Below the pieces are notes generated by a model. The model saw nothing but the letters and a program-made list of their open reading frames with translations. It ran no database searches and was not told where the DNA came from. 64,000 nucleotides of DNA from sequence record PZ534511.1. One strand, 5' to 3'. This document shows positions 12,010 through 28,603 of this stretch, piece after piece. This DNA comes from a phage. Both the position numbers and the translations under genes were made by a program. Each line of letters begins with the position of its first letter. The first letter of the stretch is position 1.

Positions 12010-12588
12010 TTAGAAGTATTCATAGAGGTATCCATCGGGAGCTGGAATTTTTTCATGAATGTAGTAACCAACATATATTCCGGTTTCTCTGCTGCAAGAG
12101 TTGTGGGATACCCACTCTTTAAGAACGTTGCCATTCATGTCCAACCTCCTTACATTTTTGCACCGTCTACCGCTGGTGCTTCTATGTAACAAAATATCCT
12201 CTGTCTGCTTGTCTTTATTTTCTCCCCAGGTCGTTAAACGGATATTATCAAAAGAGTACCCTTTGAAATCATCTATCCTGTCACAAGAAGGCTTTTTCCT
12301 TTTGTCGTATCCGCTGGCTACCCACTGATCATACAACTCTTTGTAACCGTTCAGGTATAGCCACTCCTTAAACTCTTTTTTGGTGTAAGTCGGAGGAGGG
12401 TGACCTCTTTGCTTGCTGTTGCACTTTTGAGTCTTGTACAACACACGTATTACACCTTTTTCTGAAGAGTCTTTAGCAAATTGGTCAGCCTCCCTGCTGG
12501 CCTTCTTACAGCACTCTTTGCACGTTGATTTGTTGCTGGTATAGAAGTCGGAGGCCTCCTTGTCCTCCCCACAACGTTTGCATTTCAT
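12010..12588 (-). CDS. putative homing-endonuclease-like protein (zinc finger plus degenerate HNH-like motif)
   Basis: N-terminal CKRCG..TCKECC; PSCDRIDDFKGYSFDNIRLTTWGEN resembles an HNH core with His replaced; free-standing between replication genes. Confidence 0.4.
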   Translation of the reverse strand: MKCKRCGEDKEASDFYTSNKSTCKECCKKASREADQFAKDSSEKGVIRVLYKTQKCNSKQRGHPPPTYTKKEFKEWLYLNGYKELYDQWVASGYDKRKKPSCDRIDDFKGYSFDNIRLTTWGENKDKQTEDILLHRSTSGRRCKNVRRLDMNGNVLKEWVSHNSCSRETGIYVGYYIHEKIPAPDGYLYEYF

Positions 12589-12596
12589 AACTGACC

Positions 12597-13823
12597 TTAG
12601 AAAGGGATCGAGTCATCGAACTCATACTGCGCCGGATTCTGATCCATCGGGTCATCTTCCTCATCATTTACAGGAGGAGCGTCTATAGTGTTTTGCTGTG
12701 GAGCAGCTTCCTGCTTGGCAGCTTGAGGTTCTTGATGGTCAGTGGACCCAGCACCGTTCTTGATCCAATCGTACAACGGCTCAGCCAGATTAGTCAAGAC
12801 ATCTTTTGCTTCTGCAGTAATTGCCGCTGCAAAATCCTCAACTTTCGTTTTCTTGTCAATACGGCGACAAGCGTTCAACACCGCATTACCGACACTGGCA
12901 CCTACTTCATCTTCGGTTCGGTTGGTGGCTTGAGCATACTCTTTCTTAAGCTCAATGGTGACTACGTGCAGTGTTTTAGCCACACCTAGTGGGTCGTCTA
13001 CCTTAAACCCGCGATCCAGGATGATTTGCAACGCGTTGATGCTATGTCCCGTCTCCACACCAATAGGGTCGTAAGAGGATTTACGCTTGCCACCAGAGCC
13101 TTGAGTGCCGTTCTCTGCCTTAGGGGGATAGGCTTTGAAACCACTGATAATGTTTCCGGTGTCTTTGTCAACAATGGCTGCAACACGACCACCTACCACC
13201 AGGTCTTTAAGCTGCTCATCAGTTACAACCATAGCACCTTCGCCAATCTTGTGGTCATTAACAGTAACCACGTTGCCAACAATCTGAGTCACATCGCCAT
13301 AGATGCGTAAAACGTCCTGATTGGCATTCTGCTGAGGTTTCTGCTTCTGGCCTTGTGATTGTGCACCTTGTTGCTGTTTTTGCTGCTGAGTCGCTGCTGG
13401 AGCCTCTCCTGCACCCAGCTTGACCATCTTAGCCAGTGAGCCTTTGTAATAGGTCTTACCGTTATGCTCGTTTGCCTTCAAAGGGATATTTACGATCCAT
13501 CCCGGCGTTACGGTTTCCCACTTGTCATCAATTTTAACAGAGACAGAGTCTTGATGACCAGGTTTAAGCAGCTTATCACCCATGCTGATCCAAACTTCTT
13601 CACCACCTTGAAGCAGGTTATCAGAGGAATCCAGTTCAGAAATCAGTAAAGAGATGGTGTGGCTGGATTCAATTTTCTTACCTTGCCACACAGTGGTTTT
13701 AATACCTGTTGTAGGATCAGCACCTTTGATAGGCTTGATGCTGACACGTTTAATCATGCCGTGAGCCAGTAAAACAGTTTCACGCGGATTCATCGGGTTA
13801 GCGAATTGTTGAATAACGCTCAT
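12597..13823 (-). CDS. single-stranded DNA-binding protein-like with acidic C-terminal tail
   Basis: C-terminus YEFDDSIPF matches the canonical SSB acidic tail ending in IPF; Gln-rich linker; location in the replication module. Confidence 0.6.
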   Translation of the reverse strand: MSVIQQFANPMNPRETVLLAHGMIKRVSIKPIKGADPTTGIKTTVWQGKKIESSHTISLLISELDSSDNLLQGGEEVWISMGDKLLKPGHQDSVSVKIDDKWETVTPGWIVNIPLKANEHNGKTYYKGSLAKMVKLGAGEAPAATQQQKQQQGAQSQGQKQKPQQNANQDVLRIYGDVTQIVGNVVTVNDHKIGEGAMVVTDEQLKDLVVGGRVAAIVDKDTGNIISGFKAYPPKAENGTQGSGGKRKSSYDPIGVETGHSINALQIILDRGFKVDDPLGVAKTLHVVTIELKKEYAQATNRTEDEVGASVGNAVLNACRRIDKKTKVEDFAAAITAEAKDVLTNLAEPLYDWIKNGAGSTDHQEPQAAKQEAAPQQNTIDAPPVNDEEDDPMDQNPAQYEFDDSIPF

Positions 13824-14188
13824 TATTTGTCTCCTTGTTCTTCGTTAGTGTTTGCCGTATGTGCAAACCCTGCTTGAATTAATTTGTCCTGAACTTGAGC
13901 CAACAGCCCCATTGCAAAACTTGTAGTCCCAGAGAGGGCCATTAGCATATCTCGTTGTTGAGCTACCCAACCTAAGGCATAGTCCAAACGACGATATTTT
14001 TCTTCTTCACGCAGAGCCTGAAATAATTGTTCAGCCTCCGGTTGTTGTGTGAGCTCCTGAAGTCTTCCCATGAAAGAAGAAAGCACTAGCAAAAGAGACA
14101 CTTGATCTTTACTTAACCCTAAGAAAAATTCTTGAGGTTGTTCTTGCTCGTTCATTGCAACCGACGTTTGATCGTTCATTTGTTCCAT
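13823..14188 (-). CDS. hypothetical protein
   Basis: Track ORF 121 aa; start overlaps the stop of the upstream gene. Confidence 0.45.
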   Translation of the reverse strand: MEQMNDQTSVAMNEQEQPQEFFLGLSKDQVSLLLVLSSFMGRLQELTQQPEAEQLFQALREEEKYRRLDYALGWVAQQRDMLMALSGTTSFAMGLLAQVQDKLIQAGFAHTANTNEEQGDK

Positions 14189-14271
14189 TATGGAATCTCC
14201 GATTTTATTTGAACAACATAGAAGGAGACACTATTTTAGCATCCCCTTCTGCAAATTACAATAGGTATTTG

Positions 14272-14517
14272 TTAGCCAATCACTTCAAAAGTTCCCCAAT
14301 TCCCGTCTAGCAGGCAGGTGATCGGATCCCCATCGTCGTCAAAGATTTCAAAGTTTTCAGCATCCAGGATGTGGTCCTCGAACACAATACTCTCGTCGCC
14401 ACCACCAGAAATAACAGCGTATTCCTTACCTTGAGTCAAGTTTTGACACCCTTTGCCACCAAAACCTACTTCCACACAACGTACTTTCTGTCCTGCGCGA
14501 GCAACTGCTTCAGCCAT
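14272..14517 (-). CDS. hypothetical protein
   Basis: Track ORF 81 aa; RBS AGGAGACCTTAAG. Confidence 0.45.
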   Translation of the reverse strand: MAEAVARAGQKVRCVEVGFGGKGCQNLTQGKEYAVISGGGDESIVFEDHILDAENFEIFDDDGDPITCLLDGNWGTFEVIG

Positions 14518-14534
14518 CTTAAGGTCTCCTGATA

Positions 14535-14855
14535 TTAATCGTCAAGTTCAAAATAGATTTTAACAGCTTCATCAAAGATTGGAATCCCGATGTTGTTGAT
14601 AAGCTGCCAAACTACCATATCTTTACCTGGGTCTGGGAGAATGTCAACCTTTCTCCATGCGCTGTATATCCAGTTTGGACCACCTTCTGCACTAACTGGC
14701 AGATTTTCACCAGCCTCCTGCAGATACTTATACAGCAAAAGATATTCTGGATACTCTAGAACACTGTCCTCTGTAGTATATAGCAGTTCACGGTATACTT
14801 TTAAAAACCCTGCTGGGGTGATGTTTTCAGTCTTCATTTGCTGCTTCTCCTGCAT
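14535..14855 (-). CDS. hypothetical protein
   Basis: Track ORF 106 aa. Confidence 0.45.
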   Translation of the reverse strand: MQEKQQMKTENITPAGFLKVYRELLYTTEDSVLEYPEYLLLYKYLQEAGENLPVSAEGGPNWIYSAWRKVDILPDPGKDMVVWQLINNIGIPIFDEAVKIYFELDD

Positions 14856-15219
14856 TCATCAGATCTGCCATAGCGTCACCCACGAAGAGAACAACCACAT
14901 CGTTGACAGCGTCAGCATCATCTTTATTGACGTTGCTGAATTTAGGACACACAGCAATGATCATATAGACACCGTTACCAACCTGAACTGTCCGTGTGGT
15001 GCACATCATGGCGGTATTTGTGCCTTCTTTGAAGGCGAAGCCTTGAAGACGCTCCTCTAAAGTGTTACCGGTAGATTTCAGAAGCGCCAGCTCGTCCAAG
15101 TCATAGATGATATCTCCGGAAGTTAGTGTTGCCTTGCCATCAGACACCATAATAACTCCATCAGCACCGTCAAGCTTAGAGGCTTCAAAGATATCAATAT
15201 CCCAAATATTTTTCATCAC
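14827..15219 (-). CDS. hypothetical protein
   Basis: Track ORF 130 aa. Confidence 0.45.
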   Translation of the reverse strand: MMKNIWDIDIFEASKLDGADGVIMVSDGKATLTSGDIIYDLDELALLKSTGNTLEERLQGFAFKEGTNTAMMCTTRTVQVGNGVYMIIAVCPKFSNVNKDDADAVNDVVVLFVGDAMADLMNAGEAANED

Positions 15220-15536
15220 GCTTCCTCGTCGTCTAAGGAGTTGAAGATTTCACCGAAGTATTCTAAGACTTCTAGCTCCCGTGTGGTGCAGAAAACACAG
15301 TCACCGTTGTCATCCTCGATAACGGCCTCTTTACCCAGCACATCTACTTCAAGTTTATCGTTCAACAGGACGGCCCCTGTGTAAACTTTGTCAGCTGTGC
15401 AGTCCCGAAAAGCGGAGTCCTTCTCCAGATAGTCTGGCTTAACCTTGGCTTTAATTCGTTGATATTGTTTGGTCATTGCTATGGTCTCCTTTTTCTTAGA
15501 TGGGGCCATTATATCTGGCCCCATCTTTCTTGTCAA
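15216..15536 (-). CDS. hypothetical protein, paralogue family A (FRDCT / DxxGDxVxCT motifs)
   Basis: Shares AF[RK]DCT and DD[NE]GD[CS]V[FW]CT motifs with the adjacent 15540..15794 gene. Confidence 0.5.
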   Translation of the reverse strand: MTRKMGPDIMAPSKKKETIAMTKQYQRIKAKVKPDYLEKDSAFRDCTADKVYTGAVLLNDKLEVDVLGKEAVIEDDNGDCVFCTTRELEVLEYFGEIFNSLDDEEA

Positions 15537-15539
15537 GTA

Positions 15540-15794
15540 TTAATGTTCAGGTTTTACAAAAACCACTTCGTTAACGGTGCACCAGACAGAATCTCCTTCA
15601 TCATCTTTAAAGGTAAGGCACTGGGCTGAGTTTTCCAGCTCATCAATCTCTTCTTGTGATAAAGGAGCCCCTTCTTCCAAAAGGGCTTTTACTAAAGGGT
15701 TCTCACAAAACTCTGCTTCATAAATAGCACCAAGCGTGCAATCTTTAAAAGCTCGGTCATTTGCAACGCATGCTGGTTTCAACATGATTTTCAT
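15540..15794 (-). CDS. hypothetical protein, paralogue family A
   Basis: See 15216..15536; tandem paralogue. Confidence 0.5.
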   Translation of the reverse strand: MKIMLKPACVANDRAFKDCTLGAIYEAEFCENPLVKALLEEGAPLSQEEIDELENSAQCLTFKDDEGDSVWCTVNEVVFVKPEH

Positions 15795-15870
15795 TTTAGC
15801 AGTCTCCTCAATTATTTAAAAATCAACTCTCTGTTTGTGTGAAGCATCTTATATCTAATCTTACTTCTTG

Positions 15871-16269
15871 TCAATGACTATTTTCAATCAGCCACACAGG
15901 GTCGAGGTAAATTTGTTGGCGTGTTGCCCAATGACAAACTTCATTGTACGTCTGAACCTCTTTGTCTGTCAATTCACGAATAGGCTCATCTATACCCTCA
16001 TTTTTGTGGTAATCCCATTCTGCGTCTATCTCCCACAGCCATGACTTGTTGTCACCACGCTTACGCACACAGAAGTCACCAGGGCGGCCTGCCAGTGCAT
16101 TTAAGAACTCGTTCTCCACTCGCTCCTGGAGAATACTGAGGAGCAAAACGTTGGAGCATGATCGTAAAATATGCTTCAGCTCACAGTCATCGATCTCAAC
16201 TTCGATACGTTGTTTGACTGTGTGGGTACCTTTTACTAACATTCTACCTCCTCTAAACGAACTCTGCAA
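15871..16269 (-). CDS. hypothetical protein
   Basis: Track ORF 132 aa. Confidence 0.45.
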   Translation of the reverse strand: MQSSFRGGRMLVKGTHTVKQRIEVEIDDCELKHILRSCSNVLLLSILQERVENEFLNALAGRPGDFCVRKRGDNKSWLWEIDAEWDYHKNEGIDEPIRELTDKEVQTYNEVCHWATRQQIYLDPVWLIENSH

Positions 16270-16447
16270 GGGTTGTGTTGTTCACTGCACCACAGTAAAT
16301 GGAGTATCCCAGCCCATTAGAGTGCAGAAACCACGGAGTGCCGAAATTATCTTTCACGTAGACATCGCCGTTGCTTGTAAAGGGCCAATATTCTTCACCA
16401 AGGGTGAAATACCTACTCATACCCTCAGCCAGATACTTTACTTTCAT
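16253..16447 (-). CDS. hypothetical protein, paralogue family B
   Basis: Shares the pattern W[FY][IL]xH..NG.Y.IY...L..FV with 16444..16671 and the C-terminus of 16668..17042. Confidence 0.45.
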   Translation of the reverse strand: MKVKYLAEGMSRYFTLGEEYWPFTSNGDVYVKDNFGTPWFLHSNGLGYSIYCGAVNNTTLAEFV

Positions 16448-16671
16448 AGGTCCTCTTCAACAGCTACAAACTTGGCAAGCAGGGTGGTTCCGTAGATATG
16501 ATACTCACCGTTTGCCAGATGGGAGATAAACCAGGCAATCCCTTCCTCGTCTTTAATCATCTTGTTTGCACGATCTTTATCGTAATAAACCTCGTAGGTC
16601 TTTCCTTCTTTAAAGAAGGACAGGTCTGTCATCTTTTCTTCTACAAAAGTAGCTTTAACCAAAGTTGTCAT
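16444..16671 (-). CDS. hypothetical protein, paralogue family B
   Basis: See 16253..16447. Confidence 0.45.
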   Translation of the reverse strand: MTTLVKATFVEEKMTDLSFFKEGKTYEVYYDKDRANKMIKDEEGIAWFISHLANGEYHIYGTTLLAKFVAVEEDL

Positions 16672-17042
16672 TGATCGGTCTCCTTCTTGTTAAGTCTGAA
16701 TACTGCAATAATAGCATTCCCAAGGTGCAGTGTCAAATCATTTCCAAGATACCACAACATTCCACGGTCATCTTTAATGAAAGGGTAACAATCTGGTGCC
16801 TTCCAGACATTGTACACTTTCCCAACCTGAAAGAAATCAGGCCCTGTTGGGATTTTGGTGCCAGGCCACACTTGAGATACCTGAACACACTCCACCTGCA
16901 TAATAACAGGAATAGTCATGGATGTAAATGTTTTTGTTGGTTCTACTACCATAAAAGTCTCCTCTTTGCTCAACAACACTTCCATGTGTTGATAGTTTAC
17001 ATTAGTGACAATCACCCCAATTACGACCACACAAGTATTCAC
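16668..17042 (-). CDS. hypothetical protein, paralogue family B
   Basis: C-terminal half matches family B; overlaps the end of DNA polymerase exon 2. Confidence 0.45.
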   Translation of the reverse strand: MNTCVVVIGVIVTNVNYQHMEVLLSKEETFMVVEPTKTFTSMTIPVIMQVECVQVSQVWPGTKIPTGPDFFQVGKVYNVWKAPDCYPFIKDDRGMLWYLGNDLTLHLGNAIIAVFRLNKKETDQ

Positions 17043-17355
17043 CTGTGATCTGGAACGGGACTCCCATCATTTTAGAAGCTTGCCAGAAGCAATGCACCAC
17101 CATTTCACCCACAGGGCTCCAGATAAGTTCAAGCTTTCCGTCATCGTTCAGGATAGGATCGTACACCGTGTTTCCGTCTCTGTCAACCACTTCGTTTCCG
17201 TCCTCATCCTTGCGTGCCTTTTTGTACTTATGACCGTCGAACACATGAAGTTTGGCTTCCTGCTCTGCCTTAAATGCTTCCAATTCTTCAATTGTGTCGA
17301 AGGTGTACACAGTCTTATACTTAGGCGTGTCAGGGACCTGAAGTTGGTACTCATC
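17002..17355 (-). CDS. DNA polymerase (family A), exon 2 (C-terminal part carrying the DE of motif C)
   Basis: Begins GAU GAG (DEYQLQV...), which joined to exon 1 ...YYH gives HDEYQLQV, matching T7 gp5 motif C VHDEIQV; C-terminus GRNWGDCH matches T7 gp5 GPNWAICH. Confidence 0.75.
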   Translation of the reverse strand, partial: DEYQLQVPDTPKYKTVYTFDTIEELEAFKAEQEAKLHVFDGHKYKKARKDEDGNEVVDRDGNTVYDPILNDDGKLELIWSPVGEMVVHCFWQASKMMGVPFQITGEYLCGRNWGDCH

Positions 17356-18198
17356 CATCTGTTCAGGTAGGTCGTTAAGCTACCCCGCACCATTACGTGC
17401 ATAGCCATACAGTTTCCTGTATGGATCGGACTACCTCACTGCCTTGGTAACAAGGCACCTCCCATTTCGACCGCACTTGCTGGCCTACTCTACTCGCTTC
17501 TTCACACCAACCTGTGTTGGAGCTATGCTTTCGATAGTCTCTGAACGTTACTACCAGGTGTAGTTTTTAGAGATATGTTTCCACTGTCTTCTTTGCTTTA
17601 TAGCCCTGACGGTCTCATAAGGATATCCAAGATCCCTAATCTCGCATTGTCGTAGACCACTCTGCAACAGTTCGCAAATCTCTATTACCTCATCTTCTGT
17701 CAGCACAGCGTTGGCATTATACTCACCAACTGGCCTTACTCTGAGGTCATTATCATAGGCGTGCTTGATATTTCCACCAGGGGTGGTCCATTCCAGGTTC
17801 CAGTATGCATTGTTGTACTTATTCCCATCCTTATGGTTCACCCATGTGAGCCTTTCAGGATCCGGGTTTGATACAAAGCATTCAGCAACCAGGTGGTGGA
17901 CACCTTTTGTGCACTGCTTCCCCTCGATTAGCATGGTTACGCAAAGGTAACCTCTACCATTATCAAAACAAAACATTGTTGTATGATCACGTTTCGATAA
18001 AGGTATTGTTCCATCATCAAACACGGTATACCCGTGATAATCAGCTGTTCTAGCCATTTTAACTACACCCCTTTAGTCTTCGCTGCGGATTAGCATATTG
18101 AGCTTTTACCATACTCAGGTGTAAAAGTCAACTTAGCTTTCCCGTCAATTAAAGAGGTTATTCGACATAGATCACTCTATGAAGCCACAATGTTATTT
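17356..18198 (-). mobile_element. group I self-splicing intron interrupting the DNA polymerase gene, with HNH homing endonuclease ORF in the P6 region
   Basis: Minus-strand RNA carries conserved elements P (AAUUGACGGGAAAG, 18137-18150), Q (AAUCCGCAGC, 18082-18091), R (GUUCAGAGACUA, 17535-17546), S (UAGUCC, 17428-17433), and a P9-like hairpin with GAAA loop (17406-17424); 5' exon ends in U, with GUGG available as guide sequence; intron ends in G. Confidence 0.75.
17551..18057 (-). CDS. HNH homing endonuclease (intron-encoded)
   Basis: Motif WVNHKDGNKYNNAYWNLEW (HNH core); C-terminal helix-turn-helix-like region; lies between intron elements Q and R. Confidence 0.8.
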   Translation of the reverse strand: MARTADYHGYTVFDDGTIPLSKRDHTTMFCFDNGRGYLCVTMLIEGKQCTKGVHHLVAECFVSNPDPERLTWVNHKDGNKYNNAYWNLEWTTPGGNIKHAYDNDLRVRPVGEYNANAVLTEDEVIEICELLQSGLRQCEIRDLGYPYETVRAIKQRRQWKHISKNYTW

Positions 18199-20622
18199 AT
18201 GGTAATAGATAATACGACGGACACCTTCATCGTACCACCCACGCTTCACCATTTGGTGGTGCATGAGTATCCCAACTAAGTCACACAGCGATGCACCACC
18301 ATTCTGTTGGTATGCATTAAGTAAAGAGTGTTTAGATCGGGTCCAGATAGCATGACCATCAAAAGAGTAGATAAACTTCTTACCCGTTGCTTCCCAGAAT
18401 TTCTCCAGATCCTCTTTACGCCCCTTAAGACCAGGGTTGGCATCCCAAAGTGCATCGATTACCCTTTGTCCCAACTCTGGAGAGATGTCCAGCATATCTG
18501 CAACTTTATCTTTTTGTGCCCCGTACATAACCCCATACGTGATAGGTTTACCGTCGTTACGAGACACCTCTCTGCCTGCTACTTTTGTATATGCCTCAGC
18601 ATTGTTTTGGTGTGCGTCCCCGTTACTTACAACATCATAATACAAGCCGTTGTCGAACTCAAAGGCACCCCAAGCCCCGATAAGCTGCTCTAAGTTGGAC
18701 CCGTCAATACCGATCTGAAAGTATCCAGGAGGAACACCCCACAGACTACGCATCTCTTTACCCATAACCACTTTAGGAGATGGTTTAGGCATGTTTGCAC
18801 AAATACTGTGTTTCTGTCGTGAAGTGTTTGTTAACCCAGAACTTTTAGCAGGAAGCTTATGGTCAATCTTCAAACGTGGGTGATTAAGAAGACCAGTATC
18901 AACCTTATCCTCCTTGATTGGATCAAGGACCGATCTGCGGTTTCGCAATGATAACCACAAGACGATATCTTTAGCCATCTCTCCGTTCAATTTTTCAAGA
19001 TTCGGGCATAGGTGTCCAAACGTATCTTTCAGTTGCGGAGAAGTAATAAGTGCCCTAGCTTTTCTACGTATTTTCCCGAATACTTCCTTTTTAATCCTTT
19101 CGGAGTTAGGAAAGCTTCGGAACTTGTGCACGGTTGTCTGGAACTTAGCATCAGTTTTGTTCCAGAAGTTGATAATCAGGTCACAATACTCTGACTCTAA
19201 AAGCTCGTCCATATATGCATATACTCGTGCATCAACATCTGCATCAGGTAGAGCTTTCTTCTTGCTGTCTTTAGTTACATCCTTAGTTCTCCACATTGTC
19301 GGAAGCCAACCAGCACTGATCAGGTATCGCTTAATGTCGTCCTGGTTGCTGATTTTCATAGGTATCTTGCAGTCCGGCATTCGCTTCTGCTGTAGATCAC
19401 TTATTGCCTGATCCATTAGCTCTTTAGGTAAAGGTTGTGGTGTGGAGGTGCCCTTAATATAGCCTCTCAAGAAATCAGCCATCTTATCGGGGTCTTTGCA
19501 GCCCATCTCTTCACACCATTTTATCCCTATCTTACTGACATCTCCTGTAGAGGTAAATGCTCGCTTAGGTGGGGCTTTGAACTCTAAAGCGCTCATGTCT
19601 ACAGGGTAGCCAAGCTTATCTTTTAACCATTTCCAGCCATTATTGGAAATTGTCCCATCTTGGTTGAACGGCTTTTCAGGGAATTTAGGCCGCTGAGATA
19701 TTGATAACTCTTTTAAAGGAAGTTGAGGTTCAACACGATCAGCGATCTCTTTCATCCACGCATCACAGCGGTCACGTAAAGCAATAGCCCCGTCTATGTC
19801 GAAATACACACCCTGACGGGCCTGCAGCTCCATCAGGAAGTGCTGCAGCATGCCTCGGCGTAATGCGTTCTTCCAGGTGATCTTCTTGAACCCTTTCGGC
19901 TTCTCTTTGGCAGGATCGTACATAAAGTTCTGCATGTCAGATTTGCCGTAGAATACACCTTTTGATTCCGCTACCAGCTCTTTCCAGAGCAGCTCCTGGA
20001 TGATAACGTCCTCGAATACACGATCCACATACTTCCACAACGGAAGATCGCGCCAGTCATCAATTTGAACTTTCTGGTTACCAAGGGCGTAGCCCCATGC
20101 CATAAGGCCGTGAGGACCAACAGGCTGCATTTTCTTAGTAACCGGGTTGAATACAGAGTCCGGACAACCTTTTGGTAAAGGGCGATCAGGCCACAAAATT
20201 CGACTCATCGCCAACGTATCAAACAGGTTAACCTGGTGGTCGTTGATAGTCCCCATGCATTTAGGATCACGGAACATATCAAAATGAATACCGGATAATC
20301 TTTCCATCAGCATAAAGTCATAACTGTAGCAGTTATGGCAGTTCAAAGCTGTTGGTGACCAGTCGGAATTGCCTGTAAGCCAACCTTCCAACTCCGAAAA
20401 ATCTGCTATGCGAACTTCAAAATCTTTATAAAGAGTTTTCTTTGCCAGAATGAAGTTCTTGGCCTTTTCTATATCCTCCTCGGAGTAGTGTGTGCGGTCA
20501 TTTAGAGGAAGGAACAGCATAAAACGGTTCTTATTCAGCTCTTTAAACAGACCGCAGTGATAATAAAGATCTGGGTCTTCCAAAAGCCCAGAGGCCTCCA
20601 GATCGAAGCACCAATTACTCAT
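18199..20622 (-). CDS. DNA polymerase (family A, T7 gp5-like), exon 1 with 3'-5' exonuclease and polymerase motifs A/B
   Basis: N-terminal FDLEASGL (Exo I, DxE); motif B RNDGKPITYGVMYGAQ; ORF stops 2 codons after ...YYH, before motif C, which is supplied by exon 2. Confidence 0.8.
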
Positions 20623-21353
20623 ACTGTCCCCTCCTGTTTCTTCTCAGCATTCTTTCTTGCAGCTATTGCATCGTCCCTATTCTTGAAATACCCAAGGCAT
20701 TTCCTTTTACCATCTACATAAATTCTGGCTACCCATCTTTCATGGGTTTTATCCCAATTCACCCCTGAGCAACCGCTGGTATTATTATACTGCACGGCTC
20801 TTCCACTCTTGTGCGAAAAACCATTATCTTCGAAGAACTTTCTTGCCCACTCTGCCTCTTCAAAAGTTCTGTACTGGCCTAGCCAGACCCTTTCCCCTAC
20901 AGAGTCTGTGCCTTGAGCTATCCATGCATCTCTTTCTTCAGAATAGTGCACCCCGACCCTGCCAGATTTGTTGTTGCTACGAGGTATCTTGCAACTTTTC
21001 TTTTTGTTATCTGTGGGCTCGAGTAGTTGCAAATTTTGAATACTGTTATCAGCCACACCACCTGTTTCCCTTATCTCCTTGATGTGGTCAACCTCATACC
21101 CTTCCGGTACAGGGCCGTTAAACATTTCCCAGATTATGACGTGGGCACCTTTAGTGCAATGCTTTCCTAGACTAACTACAGGCCTGCCATCAGCATCTTG
21201 CCCCTTGTCAGCTCTGGAGCCTGCTGAAGTTTTAACATATCCTACACCGCTACCTGCCAGAATGTCTATCTTCCAAAAAAGATTTTGACCGTCATACTCC
21301 AGTATCTCTGACCACAGGTGGTTGGCTACACAGTGGTCTCTGAACTCGTTCAT
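20619..21353 (-). CDS. HNH endonuclease with C-terminal AP2 DNA-binding domain (free-standing homing endonuclease)
   Basis: HNH core GYEVDHIKEI..NSIQNLQLL; C-terminal AP2-like segment VGVHYSEERDAWIAQ..WLGQYRTFEEAEWARKF; 4 nt overlap with the polymerase start. Confidence 0.75.
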   Translation of the reverse strand: MNEFRDHCVANHLWSEILEYDGQNLFWKIDILAGSGVGYVKTSAGSRADKGQDADGRPVVSLGKHCTKGAHVIIWEMFNGPVPEGYEVDHIKEIRETGGVADNSIQNLQLLEPTDNKKKSCKIPRSNNKSGRVGVHYSEERDAWIAQGTDSVGERVWLGQYRTFEEAEWARKFFEDNGFSHKSGRAVQYNNTSGCSGVNWDKTHERWVARIYVDGKRKCLGYFKNRDDAIAARKNAEKKQEGTV

Positions 21354-21411
21354 AAAGTGTTCTCCTTAAAGGGGAGGCGGTTGTACTACCCCTCCCACTC
21401 TTTGTTAAACA

Positions 21412-23490
21412 TTAAAAAGGTGTTTCATCATCTTCAAAACCGGGGACCGGATCAGAAGATGGATCATCGTACTGGAGGTCTTCCTGCGTGTCAACAGGCT
21501 TAATAGTAGGAGTTACAACCTTATCAGCTACAACCTTGCCCATAGGTGTTTCTACAACTGCATGCTCTTGGTCCTCAAACATGGCCTGAGGTCTCCAAAC
21601 AACCTCCCCACCTTCTCCGTCTGTAAACATCTGCATTTCTTTGTCCCAGTACCAATTACTGGCATCATGGAACTTACCTGTATGTGGGTCCATAACCAAA
21701 GTATCCGCAATACCCAATGTTTTTGCTGGACGGTTTTTAAGACCTACTAAACGGACACGACCACGAGAACGATCTACCATTTCTTCAGCCTCAACACCTA
21801 TGACTACCCAACTCAACTGTTCAAGCCCAGCCGATCCTCGCAAATTCTCTTTTCGCACAGGATACCAGAAAGGTAACGGGTTACCATCCTTGTCCTTAGG
21901 AGGCACAATCTCTGTACGTTTGAGGTGAGCGATCACTAGGATAAACACGTTAAACTGCTTACAAAACGCAGCCAGTTGGGTCATAGCCATGTCCAGCTCT
22001 TTTCGCTCATCCTTAACATTAAGCCCTGAAATTACCATGGACAGGTGATCCAGCACAATATAACGGCAATGGTACAGGCAAACCATTTGCTTAAGCTTGG
22101 TAATCAACTCGTCCACCGGAATAGATCCGAAATGTTTGAACACTTTGATTTTTCCAGCTTTTGCCCATGATTGGTGAATCTCTGCGTGTTCTTGATCAGT
22201 TAAAAACTGGCTAGGATCTTCAACAAACTCTTTAACATCAAACCCTAACTGGTTTGCATACAAGGAGTTAATTGCTTCCTCTGGGTCCTCCTCAAGATGA
22301 ATCATGCATAGACGATCATCCTCTTCGTAATCATCAGCCTTTGGACATGTCGGGTCCATTAGGTATCTTGCAATACAGTGTTCCAGTTTTTTAGCTACAG
22401 TTGTTTTACCGCCTCCTGATGGACCTGTAAGCATTACAAGTGTCCCTTTGTGCAAGCCTTTCAGCATTTTTTGCAGTTTTGGGAACTCTGCGCTGATATC
22501 TACCCCGTTGGAAGTCTTTTTCCGCAAAGATTCGATAGAGAAGTCTTCTAAATCCGACACAGCATCCGGCACATACTTAACAGGATGCCGGAACATGTTT
22601 ACAATATCTTCCAGCTTTTTAGCCTTCAGCATGTCACGGATATCTTTTACACCATCAGGGTCGTTTACCTCGCCAGGATATTCCACGTGGTAAACGTTAT
22701 CAGCCATCAAAAATGCTGCGATATTATGTGTGGCTTCAACACCTTTGATAACGTGTTTTTGCTTCTCTATCTCGTTAGCTGCATCGTTGTCCATTGCAAG
22801 GACCACTGTTCCGTAGCTACGGATAAATTTCTCATTGTTTGCAAAAGTATCTACTGCGTTTGCACATCCACAGTTAATTCCAACAAAAGGTAGGCAGGGT
22901 TTTCCTGCCAGATCACCACCGTTGATAACTGCGTCGATCCCGTCCTGGACCTCTTTAGCCCACTGCTTCACTTTTGCCGGGGCTTTAGCGTTGGTGAGAA
23001 TCCCTTTTACTTGTATCTGATATGCAGCCTGCCATGCTGCAATAACATCACCTTCTCCCTCACAAACGTTAATCTGCTTACGGTTGTTGGAAGATGCACA
23101 CAGCTTTTGACCAAACATCTGGGAGTTAGCCTTCACTATGCCTACTACAGACCAGTGCCCTTTCTGCTCTTTCGGCTTAGTCCAGTCACGCTTTTTGAAA
23201 CCGGACAGATTTCCGTAGCGGTCGTAATATGGGAAATATGTTGCAGTGACTGTCACACCATCTTCTTGGGACAATGCTGATCGCACACCAAAATATTGTG
23301 CAGCCATCAGACCGATATTTTGTTGTGGGACAGGGACAATTTTAGTATTTTCTAAAACAGTCTCTACAGTTTCAACCTCTTTTTCATCACGATAGTCTCG
23401 TTTCATACTACCCCCACTTTTGTATCTTGTTGCAACCGGGTTTGGCTCACCGAAACGGTTGTATGCAGATGCCATAAATTTACTTCCCAT
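21412..23490 (-). CDS. bifunctional DNA primase-helicase (T7 gp4-like: TOPRIM plus DnaB-family helicase)
   Basis: TOPRIM motifs CEGEGDVIA and MDNDAANE; Walker A GPSGGGKTT; Walker B IVLDHL; acidic C-terminal tail EDDETPF. Confidence 0.8.
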   Translation of the reverse strand: MGSKFMASAYNRFGEPNPVATRYKSGGSMKRDYRDEKEVETVETVLENTKIVPVPQQNIGLMAAQYFGVRSALSQEDGVTVTATYFPYYDRYGNLSGFKKRDWTKPKEQKGHWSVVGIVKANSQMFGQKLCASSNNRKQINVCEGEGDVIAAWQAAYQIQVKGILTNAKAPAKVKQWAKEVQDGIDAVINGGDLAGKPCLPFVGINCGCANAVDTFANNEKFIRSYGTVVLAMDNDAANEIEKQKHVIKGVEATHNIAAFLMADNVYHVEYPGEVNDPDGVKDIRDMLKAKKLEDIVNMFRHPVKYVPDAVSDLEDFSIESLRKKTSNGVDISAEFPKLQKMLKGLHKGTLVMLTGPSGGGKTTVAKKLEHCIARYLMDPTCPKADDYEEDDRLCMIHLEEDPEEAINSLYANQLGFDVKEFVEDPSQFLTDQEHAEIHQSWAKAGKIKVFKHFGSIPVDELITKLKQMVCLYHCRYIVLDHLSMVISGLNVKDERKELDMAMTQLAAFCKQFNVFILVIAHLKRTEIVPPKDKDGNPLPFWYPVRKENLRGSAGLEQLSWVVIGVEAEEMVDRSRGRVRLVGLKNRPAKTLGIADTLVMDPHTGKFHDASNWYWDKEMQMFTDGEGGEVVWRPQAMFEDQEHAVVETPMGKVVADKVVTPTIKPVDTQEDLQYDDPSSDPVPGFEDDETPF

Positions 23491-26894: not shown

Positions 26895-27236
26895 CTACTC
26901 AAGGTCTTCAGAGTCAAGCTCAAAAAGAATCAAACTGTGCATGCCTGCAGAGAGATTAACACACCCTGCAACAATAAGGGTTTGATAGTAAGGTCCAGCA
27001 CCCTCAATGTCTTCGTTAAAATCTACAACAAGGTAGTCACCTTTGTTAAAGGTGTATTTGTCCGATGTAAACGCAAAACCTGCCCAGTCTCCTACTGCAG
27101 GATCTTTATCAGTCACCTTTGTTAGCAGTAGATCTTTTTCACGAGATCTTTTAGTAAAATCGTGAATCACAACATTCTTCTCTTCAGGAGTCGGATTGCC
27201 ACACACGTAGTTAACGATATTTCTCCACAAACTCAT
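26895..27236 (-). CDS. hypothetical protein
   Basis: Track ORF 113 aa; start overlaps the stop of the helicase gene. Confidence 0.45.
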   Translation of the reverse strand: MSLWRNIVNYVCGNPTPEEKNVVIHDFTKRSREKDLLLTKVTDKDPAVGDWAGFAFTSDKYTFNKGDYLVVDFNEDIEGAGPYYQTLIVAGCVNLSAGMHSLILFELDSEDLE

Positions 27237-28603
27237 ACGTCCCCCTCTTCTGCTCTGGTTTCAAAATCTTTCCTGACAATTTTGTCTAAGTCAGGGAATG
27301 TTGTATTGTAAAACTCTACGACTCGCGGGTCAACAATAATGTCAACTTCTCTTAGTGGACGCAACAAGTTTATTCCTTGTATTGTCTTAACCCGACTCAA
27401 AGCAACATACGTCATCCCAGGAGAGAAAGCTCCGTTCTTTCCAAGGTCCAGGTTGTAACAATCTAGCGTAAGTCCTTGACTTTTATGAGATGTTACGGCG
27501 TACCCAGATTTCAGAGGAAGTTGCTTGTATGACCCAATCACTACCCTCTCTATAAACTTCTCCATCTTCCTTTCTGCAATGTTGTATCTCTGAGAGGGCT
27601 TATACTCGTTATTCTCCCACAACCTCTGCTCTATGTCAACCTGTGTTCCATCTTCAAGCTCTACCACCACCGCCTTGTTCTTAAATTTAACAATTGTGGC
27701 ACGTGTTCCGTTAACATAATAAGGTACCTTGTGCGTCGGGTCAACATCGTTGGCGGTTATCATAACTTTCATGCCAATTTTCAACTTCATCTCCTGCTCA
27801 ACTGGCAGGGTGGAGGGAAACTTACCCTTCATTTCACCAGTGTATACCTTCTCTGGGGCGTTGATGGCATCATAGAACCTTCTGTTCACTTCCTCTGCTT
27901 GTTTGTTGGTGGCGCAAATTGTGAGAGCGTCTGTTGGTACACCGCCTTTGTAACAGCGAGCATTAAGTTCTGCTACAACCTCTTTTATGCGACGACCCTC
28001 ACGAACACAGTTGAGCATTGTGGCAAATCGAATAGACTCCTGTCGGAACTGATCTACTAAGGCTATGTTGTGGAGGTCAAGCTCTTTCCAAGATTCGGTA
28101 TAGCAACACAGGTCCGTATGGTAGAAGTTGAAGTAGGCTTCCTTCTCCATAGAAGAGACAACAGGAGGTGCCTGGTAAAAATCGCCAAACAATATGACCT
28201 GTATGCCTCCGAAAGGTTTGTCATTTTTTCGAAGGAAGCGGAGTTTCCTATCCATCTCTATAAACTTATCAGCACGGATCATAGAGATTTCATCGATAAT
28301 CAGGATGGTAAATGCCTTGCTTTTCAAAGGCTTTGCTGTTTTTGCCCTTATTGCGGTCCAGTCTGACTCCATGCTCACACCTGCTGCAAGATCGAAGGTT
28401 CGGTGTGCTGTTGCTCCATTAACGTTTAAAGCGGCTACCCCTGTCGGGGCAACCGTTATGCAAGAGTCTCCATACATTGACTGGATCATGTTGATGAGAT
28501 ACGTCTTCCCACAACCTGCAGGTCCTGAAACGAAGACATTCTCACCACTCATGATTGCAACGAGGGCAGCATCTGTGCCTACATCATACTGCCCTTTTTC
28601 CAT
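27233..28603 (-). CDS. Dda/PIF1/RecD-like superfamily 1 DNA helicase
   Basis: Walker A GPAGCGKTY near the N-terminus; Walker B-like IIDEISM; size and position typical of phage Dda-like helicases. Confidence 0.7.
   Translation of the reverse strand: MEKGQYDVGTDAALVAIMSGENVFVSGPAGCGKTYLINMIQSMYGDSCITVAPTGVAALNVNGATAHRTFDLAAGVSMESDWTAIRAKTAKPLKSKAFTILIIDEISMIRADKFIEMDRKLRFLRKNDKPFGGIQVILFGDFYQAPPVVSSMEKEAYFNFYHTDLCCYTESWKELDLHNIALVDQFRQESIRFATMLNCVREGRRIKEVVAELNARCYKGGVPTDALTICATNKQAEEVNRRFYDAINAPEKVYTGEMKGKFPSTLPVEQEMKLKIGMKVMITANDVDPTHKVPYYVNGTRATIVKFKNKAVVVELEDGTQVDIEQRLWENNEYKPSQRYNIAERKMEKFIERVVIGSYKQLPLKSGYAVTSHKSQGLTLDCYNLDLGKNGAFSPGMTYVALSRVKTIQGINLLRPLREVDIIVDPRVVEFYNTTFPDLDKIVRKDFETRAEEGDV

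Follow-up and report, generated by a model that had tools for sequence, protein, structure and literature searches.

Two proteins encoded in a 64,000-nucleotide (nt) stretch of phage DNA (sequence record PZ534511.1; this whole stretch is called the window below) were found to end in an acidic tail closed by Pro-Phe. One is a protein of 408 amino acids (aa) that resembles proteins which bind single-stranded DNA (SSBs), and the other is a primase-helicase of 692 aa like gp4 of phage T7. Judged from their residues, the tails are of the class of the bacterial SSB C-terminal interaction motif (SSB-Ct) and not of the T7 class. We consider it fairly probable that the tips of both proteins are docking motifs on flexible linkers, which would tether the replisome in the style of T7 by means of the host SSB-Ct motif.

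The interval 12597-23490 showed 96% nucleotide identity over its full length to Vequintavirus (rV5-like) phages of Escherichia coli, e.g. WalterGehring (MZ501111) and FFH2, and by this identity the source of the window is an rV5-like phage. All genes of the finding are located on the minus strand.

Two tails and their motif class

The tail-bearing genes and their tips are located as follows.

12597..13823, minus strand: SSB-like protein gene, 408 aa (phrog_4477, E 1e-172; annotated as hypothetical in MZ501111 and LR699804)
12600..12623, minus strand: SSB-Ct-type tip EFDDSIPF, aa 401-408 (TAA at 12597-12599)
21412..23490, minus strand: gp4-like primase-helicase gene, 692 aa (phrog_239, E 6e-160; Pfam DnaB_C and AAA_25 over aa 331-589)
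21415..21438, minus strand: helicase tip FEDDETPF, aa 685-692 (TAA at 21412-21414)

Both ends were read in the DNA. The 408-aa open reading frame (ORF) ends in ...YEFDDSIPF (...NPAQYEFDDSIPF; longer, ...DQNPAQYEFDDSIPF) and the primase-helicase in ...GFEDDETPF (...DPVPGFEDDETPF; ...SSDPVPGFEDDETPF; tip peptide PVPGFEDDETPF), each directly followed by TAA. The 86 ORFs of at least 60 aa that a greedy choice without overlaps gave for the window, some of them on the wrong strand, contain no further acidic PF end. Of the 960 ORFs of at least 40 aa in the rebuilt WalterGehring genome (140.6 kb, 96% identical), no real gene other than these two has such an end. From the composition of the WalterGehring proteome, 0.013 PF-ending proteins with at least three acidic residues in the preceding six would be expected, and the probability of two or more is about 8e-5. 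The coding DNA of the two tails differs (gagttcgatgactcgatccctttc vs ggttttgaagatgatgaaacaccttttt); duplication or gene conversion between them was therefore rejected, and the likeness lies at the level of the protein motif.

The tips are kept in both protein families. For the 408-aa protein we collected 56 word-indexed homologs, down to 30% identity, and 252 clusters at E <=0.001 through a profile search of 1.84 billion representatives. Among 147 new representatives (mutual identity <=50%), 110 end in PF and four more carry PF followed by a 15-aa add-on, which is described below; the rest comprise several ends with IPF plus one extra residue, 12 with an acidic run and PW or DF, and a remainder that is mostly fragment-like. 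Over its last eight residues the family has the consensus DFDDDIPF, and many members end exactly in EPPMDFDDDIPF. The primase-helicase homologs, which reach down to 42% identity and include Vibrio phages, end in PF in 111 of the 120 listed, with PF and the add-on in two more; typical ends are DFDDDTPF, DFDNDTPF, DLDSDSPF, EDEDCPF and DDEPF. The linkers before the tips are conserved in neither family, and a conserved tip on a variable linker is the mark of selection on a short linear motif.

The first-pass annotation of this DNA had noticed acidic Phe-terminated tails on both proteins, and this observation stands: the ends exceed chance expectation, and both families conserve them as short linear motifs. 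That their resemblance is a coincidence is hardly credible: each motif is just 6-8 residues long, but the low chance expectation in a single genome and the conservation of the tips across hundreds of homologs in both families refute it.

The same annotation had placed the tails with those of T7, and this part was not borne out. The T7 proteins (NC_001604) end in ...EEADEDGDF (gp2.5) and ...DWSNDTDF (gp4), and neither end contains Pro. The E. coli SSB (PDB 1EQQ/4MZ9) ends in ...SNEPPMDFDDDIPF (final NEPPMDFDDDIPF), and its octapeptide DFDDDIPF is described as the SSB-Ct interaction motif, whose terminal IPF is needed for function (PMC5872125, PMC10143822). The SSB-like tip EFDDSIPF is identical to the SSB-Ct at six of eight positions, and many members of its family at 12 of 12. 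The helicase tip FEDDETPF matches at four of eight positions, and the end DFDDDTPF of its relatives at seven. Through hmmsearch with the profile of the 408-aa family, the best match among PDB sequences was the E. coli SSB, over residues 153-178 only (E 0.037); conversely, tblastn with the E. coli SSB against the window gave a sole match at 12600-12752, covering linker and tip (E 0.019). Since the tips end in Pro-Phe and reproduce DFDDDIPF, while the T7 tips have no Pro, the tails are by sequence of the bacterial SSB-Ct class and not of the T7 class.

There is a systematic difference between the two tails at position -3 from the end. The residue there is Ile, Leu or Val in 147 of the 154 tails of the SSB-like family; of the 111 helicase tails, 109 have Ser, Thr, Glu or Cys and none has Ile, Leu or Val. 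On this comparison the helicase tip (D-x-D-[STEC]-P-F in the family) is a related but systematically different version of the SSB-Ct, and the split between [ILV]PF and [STEC]PF suggests that the two tails differ in affinity or bind at different sites.

Two side observations were made in the Phapecoctavirus EP57. The last 39 nt of its SSB-like gene (fetched stretch 14394-14483) are 92% identical to the 3' ends of ssb genes of E. coli plasmids, which hints at an exchange of the tip-coding segment. A 92-aa ORF just upstream of this short-form SSB-like gene (fetched stretch 12863-13141) ends in ...EEDDIPW.

The tail-bearing proteins and the polymerase

Homologs of the 408-aa protein occur in 305 phage records and are annotated as "hypothetical protein" in almost all of them and as SSB in a few. 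No meaningful Pfam domain was found in the protein or in 24 + 10 members of its family, and in PHROGs the family corresponded to phrog_4477 only, labelled function unknown. The first-pass annotation had compared its tail with that of T7 gp2.5. For the protein as a whole, hhalign of the family alignment against gp2.5 gave a probability of 0.3%, i.e. no similarity, and tblastn with gp2.5 against the window gave nothing below E = 1; by sequence the 408-aa protein is not in the gp2.5 family. An AlphaFold2 model, which was built on a 24-sequence alignment, divides the protein into the following parts before the tip.

13407..13823, minus strand: N-terminal oligonucleotide/oligosaccharide-binding (OB) fold domain, aa 1-139, putative core for binding single-stranded DNA (ssDNA), well predicted and all-beta
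13317..13406, minus strand: Gln-rich disordered linker, aa 140-169 (model confidence, pLDDT, 25-32; variable in the alignment)
13119..13316, minus strand: second small five-strand barrel, aa 170-235, predicted in the OB-like order strand-strand-strand-short helix-strand-strand
12759..13067, minus strand: predicted four-helix bundle, aa 253-355 (pLDDT 81-95; GVETGH...VGNAVLNAC)
12624..12758, minus strand: Pro/Gln/acid-rich disordered linker, aa 356-400 (pLDDT <50; variable sequence)

In the model, disorder begins at aa 359 and runs through to the C-terminus, with pLDDT <50 for aa 359-402 and for aa 406-408. The OB fold predicted for the N-terminal domain is closest to bacterial SSB and PriB, and Foldseek against viral models gave weak matches to entries named "phage ssDNA-binding domain", DUF2815 and SSB. 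The second barrel is absent from the short (~280 aa) family members. The four-helix bundle, for which no relative was detectable by sequence, is the most conserved part of the family with invariant or near-invariant columns, and the most distant homologs match mainly the bundle and the tail. The bundle may serve in oligomerization or in the binding of partners.

The protein thus has the disordered Pro/Gln-rich linker of bacterial SSBs and their acidic tip with a terminal Phe before the stop codon; in its DNA-binding core the predicted model agrees with them at fold level only. The annotation of WalterGehring, with its 236 features, contains no SSB, tblastn searches with the E. coli SSB, a canonical phage SSB and gp2.5 found no other SSB candidate, and our literature search found no paper naming an SSB in rV5-like phages. 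The protein presumably binds ssDNA. As modelled, phrog_4477 appears to be a new SSB family of unusual architecture, with an SSB-type OB fold, a small OB-like barrel, a four-helix bundle, a disordered linker and an acidic tip.

Alternatively, the 408-aa protein could be an accessory factor, such as a recombination mediator, an annealing protein or a helicase loader, with an OB fold and a helical domain as in RecO, and its SSB-Ct tip would recruit it to the same receptors. The conservation of the family, which is highest in the helical bundle and not in the OB fold, and the missing sequence similarity to SSB families speak for this reading. We regard it as improbable, however: the known mediators bind the SSB-Ct and do not carry it, the genome would then be without any SSB, and the architecture of linker and tip is a hallmark of SSBs.

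The identification of the second protein as a gp4-like primase-helicase was confirmed. BLASTP against T7 gp4 gave 25% identity over 408 aa (E 2e-21), covering T7 residues 174-540, from the DxD region of TOPRIM to the end of the helicase core, and the helicase domain matched Pfam DnaB_C (E 1.9e-13) and AAA_25 (E 1.9e-15). A TOPRIM (primase) domain is indicated by LAMDNDAAN, which is aligned to LMFDMDEAG of gp4, by CEGEGD upstream of it, and by phrog_239 ('DNA primase/helicase'), which covers aa 33-677. The T7 primase uses a Cys4 zinc-binding domain for template recognition; no Cys was found in the first ~130 residues of the phage protein (23100-23490, minus strand), which leaves no place for such a domain there.

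The alignment with gp4 stops at residue 605, and the tip is carried by an extension beyond it.

21439..21675, minus strand: C-terminal extension of the helicase past the gp4-alignable region, aa 606-684

Together with the tip this extension is 87 aa long, against 26 aa in T7 gp4. In an alignment of 19 homologs its helicase-proximal part (G[KQ]F.DAS.W, ...GE[VI]) is conserved in the family and is followed by a largely variable linker, in which a second conserved motif, (L)ETPxGK(V/I), is located ~40 residues before the tip (aa ~645-655; 21520-21560, minus strand). Many primase-helicase homologs are 975-1025 aa long and contain an insert of ~320 aa after the Walker region; it has no Pfam match and may be an intein or another mobile insert.

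The DNA polymerase gene lies between the helicase and SSB-like genes.

18199..20622, minus strand: DNA polymerase exon 1, 808 aa, T7 gp5-like family A (phrog_17)
17002..17355, minus strand: DNA polymerase exon 2, 117 aa, DEYQLQV...NWGDCH (phrog_8888 positions 185-295)
17356-18198, minus strand: group I intron, 843 nt, with an HNH endonuclease ORF at 17551-18057 (Rfam RF00028)
18370..18396, minus strand: polymerase loop WEATGKKFI (Lys aa 747-748), candidate tail-docking site, aligned with the front basic patch K587/K589/R590/R591 of T7 gp5

The intron covers RF00028 in full length and scores under its gathering cutoff (29.4 bits, E 2.8e-4). It splits the polymerase motif C (…IIYYH / DEYQLQV…), and splicing restores HDE; an uninterrupted homolog reads RRLIYYHDEYQLQV. 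The polymerase is a joined coding sequence in MZ501111, with a spliced length of 925 aa. The T7-like family A polymerase that had been recognized at first reading was upheld by BLASTP against T7 gp5, with E 5e-19 for palm and fingers and 1e-5 for the exonuclease region; the protein ends in ...NWGDCH and T7 gp5 in ...NWAICH, with the C-terminal His shared. At the position of the thioredoxin-binding domain a thumb insert is present, which is not alignable with T7.

In T7, acidic tails bind basic patches of the polymerase (PMC8472574, PMC12339929), and the front patch binds both the gp2.5 tail and a gp4-mimicking DTDF peptide (PMC12339929). Deletion of the gp4 tail cuts processivity threefold, and the C-terminal Phe of gp2.5 is essential (PMC8472574, PMC9917605, PMC12339929). 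In the phage polymerase the aligned loop is kept as WE[AL]TGK[KR][FY]I in four relatives, and the conserved basic pair, K[KR], is compatible with a related docking site.

The add-on and the function of the tails

In many relatives the terminal Phe is followed by an add-on of 15 aa with the consensus A-P-[IV]-G-L-Q-Y-x4-[IV]-[YH]-x-[LI]. It is present in rV5 (ORF214, 423 aa), in one SSB-like cluster of 533 member sequences, and on both the SSB-like protein and the primase-helicase of GAP31 (GAP31_233, GAP31_257). It was also found on the canonical OB-fold SSB of the unrelated Escherichia phage BUCT618, with similar matches under annotated Vibrio phage SSBs and phiEB49 gp26. The phage of the window does not have it, and TAA directly follows IPF. 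No mention of the add-on sequence was found in our literature search.

The coding DNA of the add-on often, though not always, overlaps the start of a downstream endonuclease gene, and rV5 is such an overlapping case. We considered whether the add-on is a mere by-product of an overlapping homing-endonuclease start; as the sole explanation this was rejected, because in BUCT618 and GAP31_233 no endonuclease accompanies the add-on. A comparison of rV5 with BUCT618 shows codon switches (Ser AGT->TCG, Leu TTG->CTA) that preserve the peptide, and the overlapping frame is not conserved, which indicates, at the level of these codon comparisons, that selection acts on the add-on peptide. The presence of this add-on after the PF of both GAP31 proteins and of the BUCT618 SSB also speaks for the two tails being handled as a single kind of module.

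In the mechanism that we favour, both proteins would carry a docking motif, consisting of an acidic run and x-Pro-Phe-COOH on a flexible linker. Through the tips, the helicase hexamer and the SSB bound to ssDNA would be tethered to partners in the replisome, each at a pocket beside a basic surface. As receptor the phage polymerase, with two Lys/Arg at the position of the T7 front patch, comes first among the candidates, and other partners would probably be ssDNA-acting phage enzymes (PIF1-like helicase, exonucleases and ligase). Such tethering would hold polymerases at the fork and help to displace SSB. We infer the identity of the receptors and the effect of binding by analogy: docking on the phage polymerase follows the T7 example, and host SSB-interacting proteins are equally plausible as receptors, engagement of host partners being possible since nothing distinguishes the SSB tip from that of the host.

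Several observations weigh against this mechanism. Outside its tail, the 408-aa protein has no sequence similarity to any SSB family, including no match to PF00436. The polymerase keeps only two of the four basic residues of the T7 front patch. Given the systematic -3 difference, the two tails may not share one receptor site. In the many relatives with the add-on, including rV5, the Phe has no free carboxylate, and this is hard to reconcile with docking of the classical SSB-Ct type or of the T7 F232 type. Finally, the tips of the two proteins show no clear co-variation across genomes: DWDD..PF stands on both proteins of phiTE and DFD..PF on both of GAP31, but in other pairs the tips do not follow each other, e.g. 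WDWDESIPF or DFEDVPF with EDEDCPF. Part of this pairing of tips is itself inference, and co-variation was not used as evidence.

A second explanation, which we hold possible though rather unlikely, is that mimicry of the host hub is the main function. The tips would then engage the E. coli SSB-interacting proteins (the clamp-loader subunit chi, DnaG, PriA, RecQ, ExoI, RNase HI, Ung and others), either borrowed by the phage or drawn off the host SSB, and the phage polymerase would not be a receptor. E. coli SSB recruits its interacting proteins via the acidic tip, and at least 17 host partners read the motif (PMC10143822, PMC10018359, PMC7145534); in crystal structures ExoI and RecO bind the terminal IPF (PMC10143822). 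The close match of the SSB-like tips to the octapeptide favours mimicry, as does the Pro-Phe end, a bacterial signature absent from the T7 tails, and the 39-nt match in EP57 is compatible with capture of the motif from a bacterial ssb. However, the phage has a polymerase, a primase-helicase, a PIF1-like helicase, a ligase and exonucleases of its own (the last two known from the annotation of a relative's genome), and a need for host partners is not obvious. The helicase tips lack the Ile/Leu/Val of the SSB-Ct at -3, and the add-on variants bury the terminal carboxylate. Mimicry is also compatible with tethering of the replisome and does not exclude it.

The tails might instead be mainly autoregulatory, the acidic tip folding onto its own OB fold or helicase, where it would compete with ssDNA and tune affinity and cooperativity with no specific partner. 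Such a role is described for the tails of T7 gp2.5 and E. coli SSB (PMC12339929, PMC9917605, PMC5928155), and both phage tails are strongly acidic and located on disordered linkers. As the main function we think it quite improbable, since competition by charge leaves the Pro-Phe and the aromatic residue at -7, both near-invariant in hundreds of sequences, and the class-specific -3 residue unexplained, and in known systems autoregulation coexists with partner binding.

Genomic setting and comparison with known systems

The annotated relatives MZ501111 and LR699804 show the same gene order: a Dcm-like methyltransferase, the DNA primase/helicase, (a homing endonuclease), the DNA polymerase with its intron-borne endonuclease, ~15 small hypothetical genes, the 408-aa "hypothetical protein" and (a homing endonuclease). 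The order helicase, polymerase, SSB-like protein, with the last at the end of the operon, is kept in GAP31, phiTE and Klebsiella phage Iguana, which are all three relatives whose fetched stretch reaches the helicase. In EP57 the polymerase is also followed by the SSB-like gene, and no gp4-like helicase was found within the 14 kb examined. Other genes in the window are located as follows.

27233-28603: PIF1-like helicase
12010-12588, minus strand: EndoVII-like free-standing homing-endonuclease gene, starting 9 nt past the SSB-like stop codon
20619-21353, minus strand: HNH-AP2 free-standing homing-endonuclease gene, downstream of the primase-helicase after a terminator-like hairpin

Free-standing homing-endonuclease genes are thus located directly 3' of both tail-bearing genes; the HNH-AP2 gene behind the primase-helicase is absent from many relatives, and in rV5 the gene behind the SSB-like protein overlaps the DNA that encodes the add-on. 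In addition, 16 database records (MG0656xx) titled 'Campylobacter phage' showed ~96% identity to this E. coli rV5-like phage over the whole interval; mislabelling or contaminant assembly is the probable cause.

That SSBs and the T7 helicase bear acidic C-terminal tails is textbook knowledge. Apparently new are the recognition of an SSB family in phrog_4477, the SSB-Ct-like tip on a primase-helicase with its class-specific -3 residue, and the add-on. A tentative reading that joins them, which may well not hold in full, sees in phrog_4477 (at least 250 clusters at 50% identity, 305 phage genomes) an undescribed SSB family employed by the Vequintavirinae and by large myoviruses related to them (~130-160 kb). 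This family would combine an SSB-type OB fold with a new conserved four-helix bundle and carry an exact copy of the host SSB-Ct. Their helicase would carry a derived SSB-Ct ([STEC]PF), the replisome would be wired in the SSB-Ct "language" of the host, and the add-on, which can follow the tip on SSB-like proteins, helicases and canonical phage SSBs, may act as a second docking motif or as a new regulatory cap that masks the Phe. If so, the helicase itself would compete for or recruit host SSB partners.

The findings would assign an SSB function to a widespread "hypothetical" family in therapeutic and biocontrol phages of E. coli, Klebsiella, Salmonella and Cronobacter, and would extend the T7 strategy, in which polymerase, helicase and SSB are tethered via acidic aromatic-ended tails, to unrelated large myoviruses. 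The identity of the motif with the SSB-Ct raises the question whether the tips are used only inside the phage replisome or serve in addition to exploit or block the SSB interactome of the host. Simple handles for peptide-binding and tail-swap work are provided by the two motif classes and the optional add-on. Because SSB-Ct pockets are pursued as antibacterial targets, natural SSB-Ct variants are also of practical interest.

Compared with the T7 replisome, the phage has the same trio of gp4-like helicase, gp5-like polymerase and SSB(-like) protein; SSB and helicase both end in an acidic run with a terminal Phe on a flexible linker, and the polymerase has a basic pair at the front-patch position. 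The differences are in the tips, ...GDF/...TDF in T7 and ...[ILV]PF/...[STEC]PF here; in the 408-aa protein, which is unrelated to gp2.5 in sequence and whose predicted fold is nearest to bacterial SSB and PriB; in the helicase, with its longer extension and no Cys4 domain; and in the polymerase of 925 aa with a group I intron.

With bacterial SSB the 408-aa protein shares a near-identical tip, a Pro/Gln-rich disordered linker and, as predicted, an SSB-type N-terminal OB fold. In contrast, it has no PF00436 match, it contains an extra OB-like barrel and the four-helix bundle, and the phage carries the motif on its replicative helicase too. Our literature search found no description of an SSB-Ct-like motif on a replicative helicase, and we know of none elsewhere.

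Among phage systems, the SSB of HK620 recruits the phage partner Sak4 through its tail hexapeptide NDYPPF (PMC5928155). In this group, to which the acidic domain of T4 gp32 also belongs, an acidic tail with an aromatic end on a phage SSB loads phage enzymes onto SSB-coated ssDNA (PMC5928155), as is proposed here; the partner proteins of HK620 SSB and T4 gp32 are others, and in the present phage the helicase carries a matching tail as well. The phage SSBs of the BUCT618 type have the same C-terminal module as the add-on relatives, ...DDIPF followed by A-x-I-G-L-Q-Y-G-K-S-R-I-Y-A-L, but they have a classical PF00436-like OB domain, and the phage of the window lacks the add-on. In function, the closest known system is the tail network of T7 gp2.5, gp4 and gp5, and by motif it is the bacterial SSB-Ct hub.

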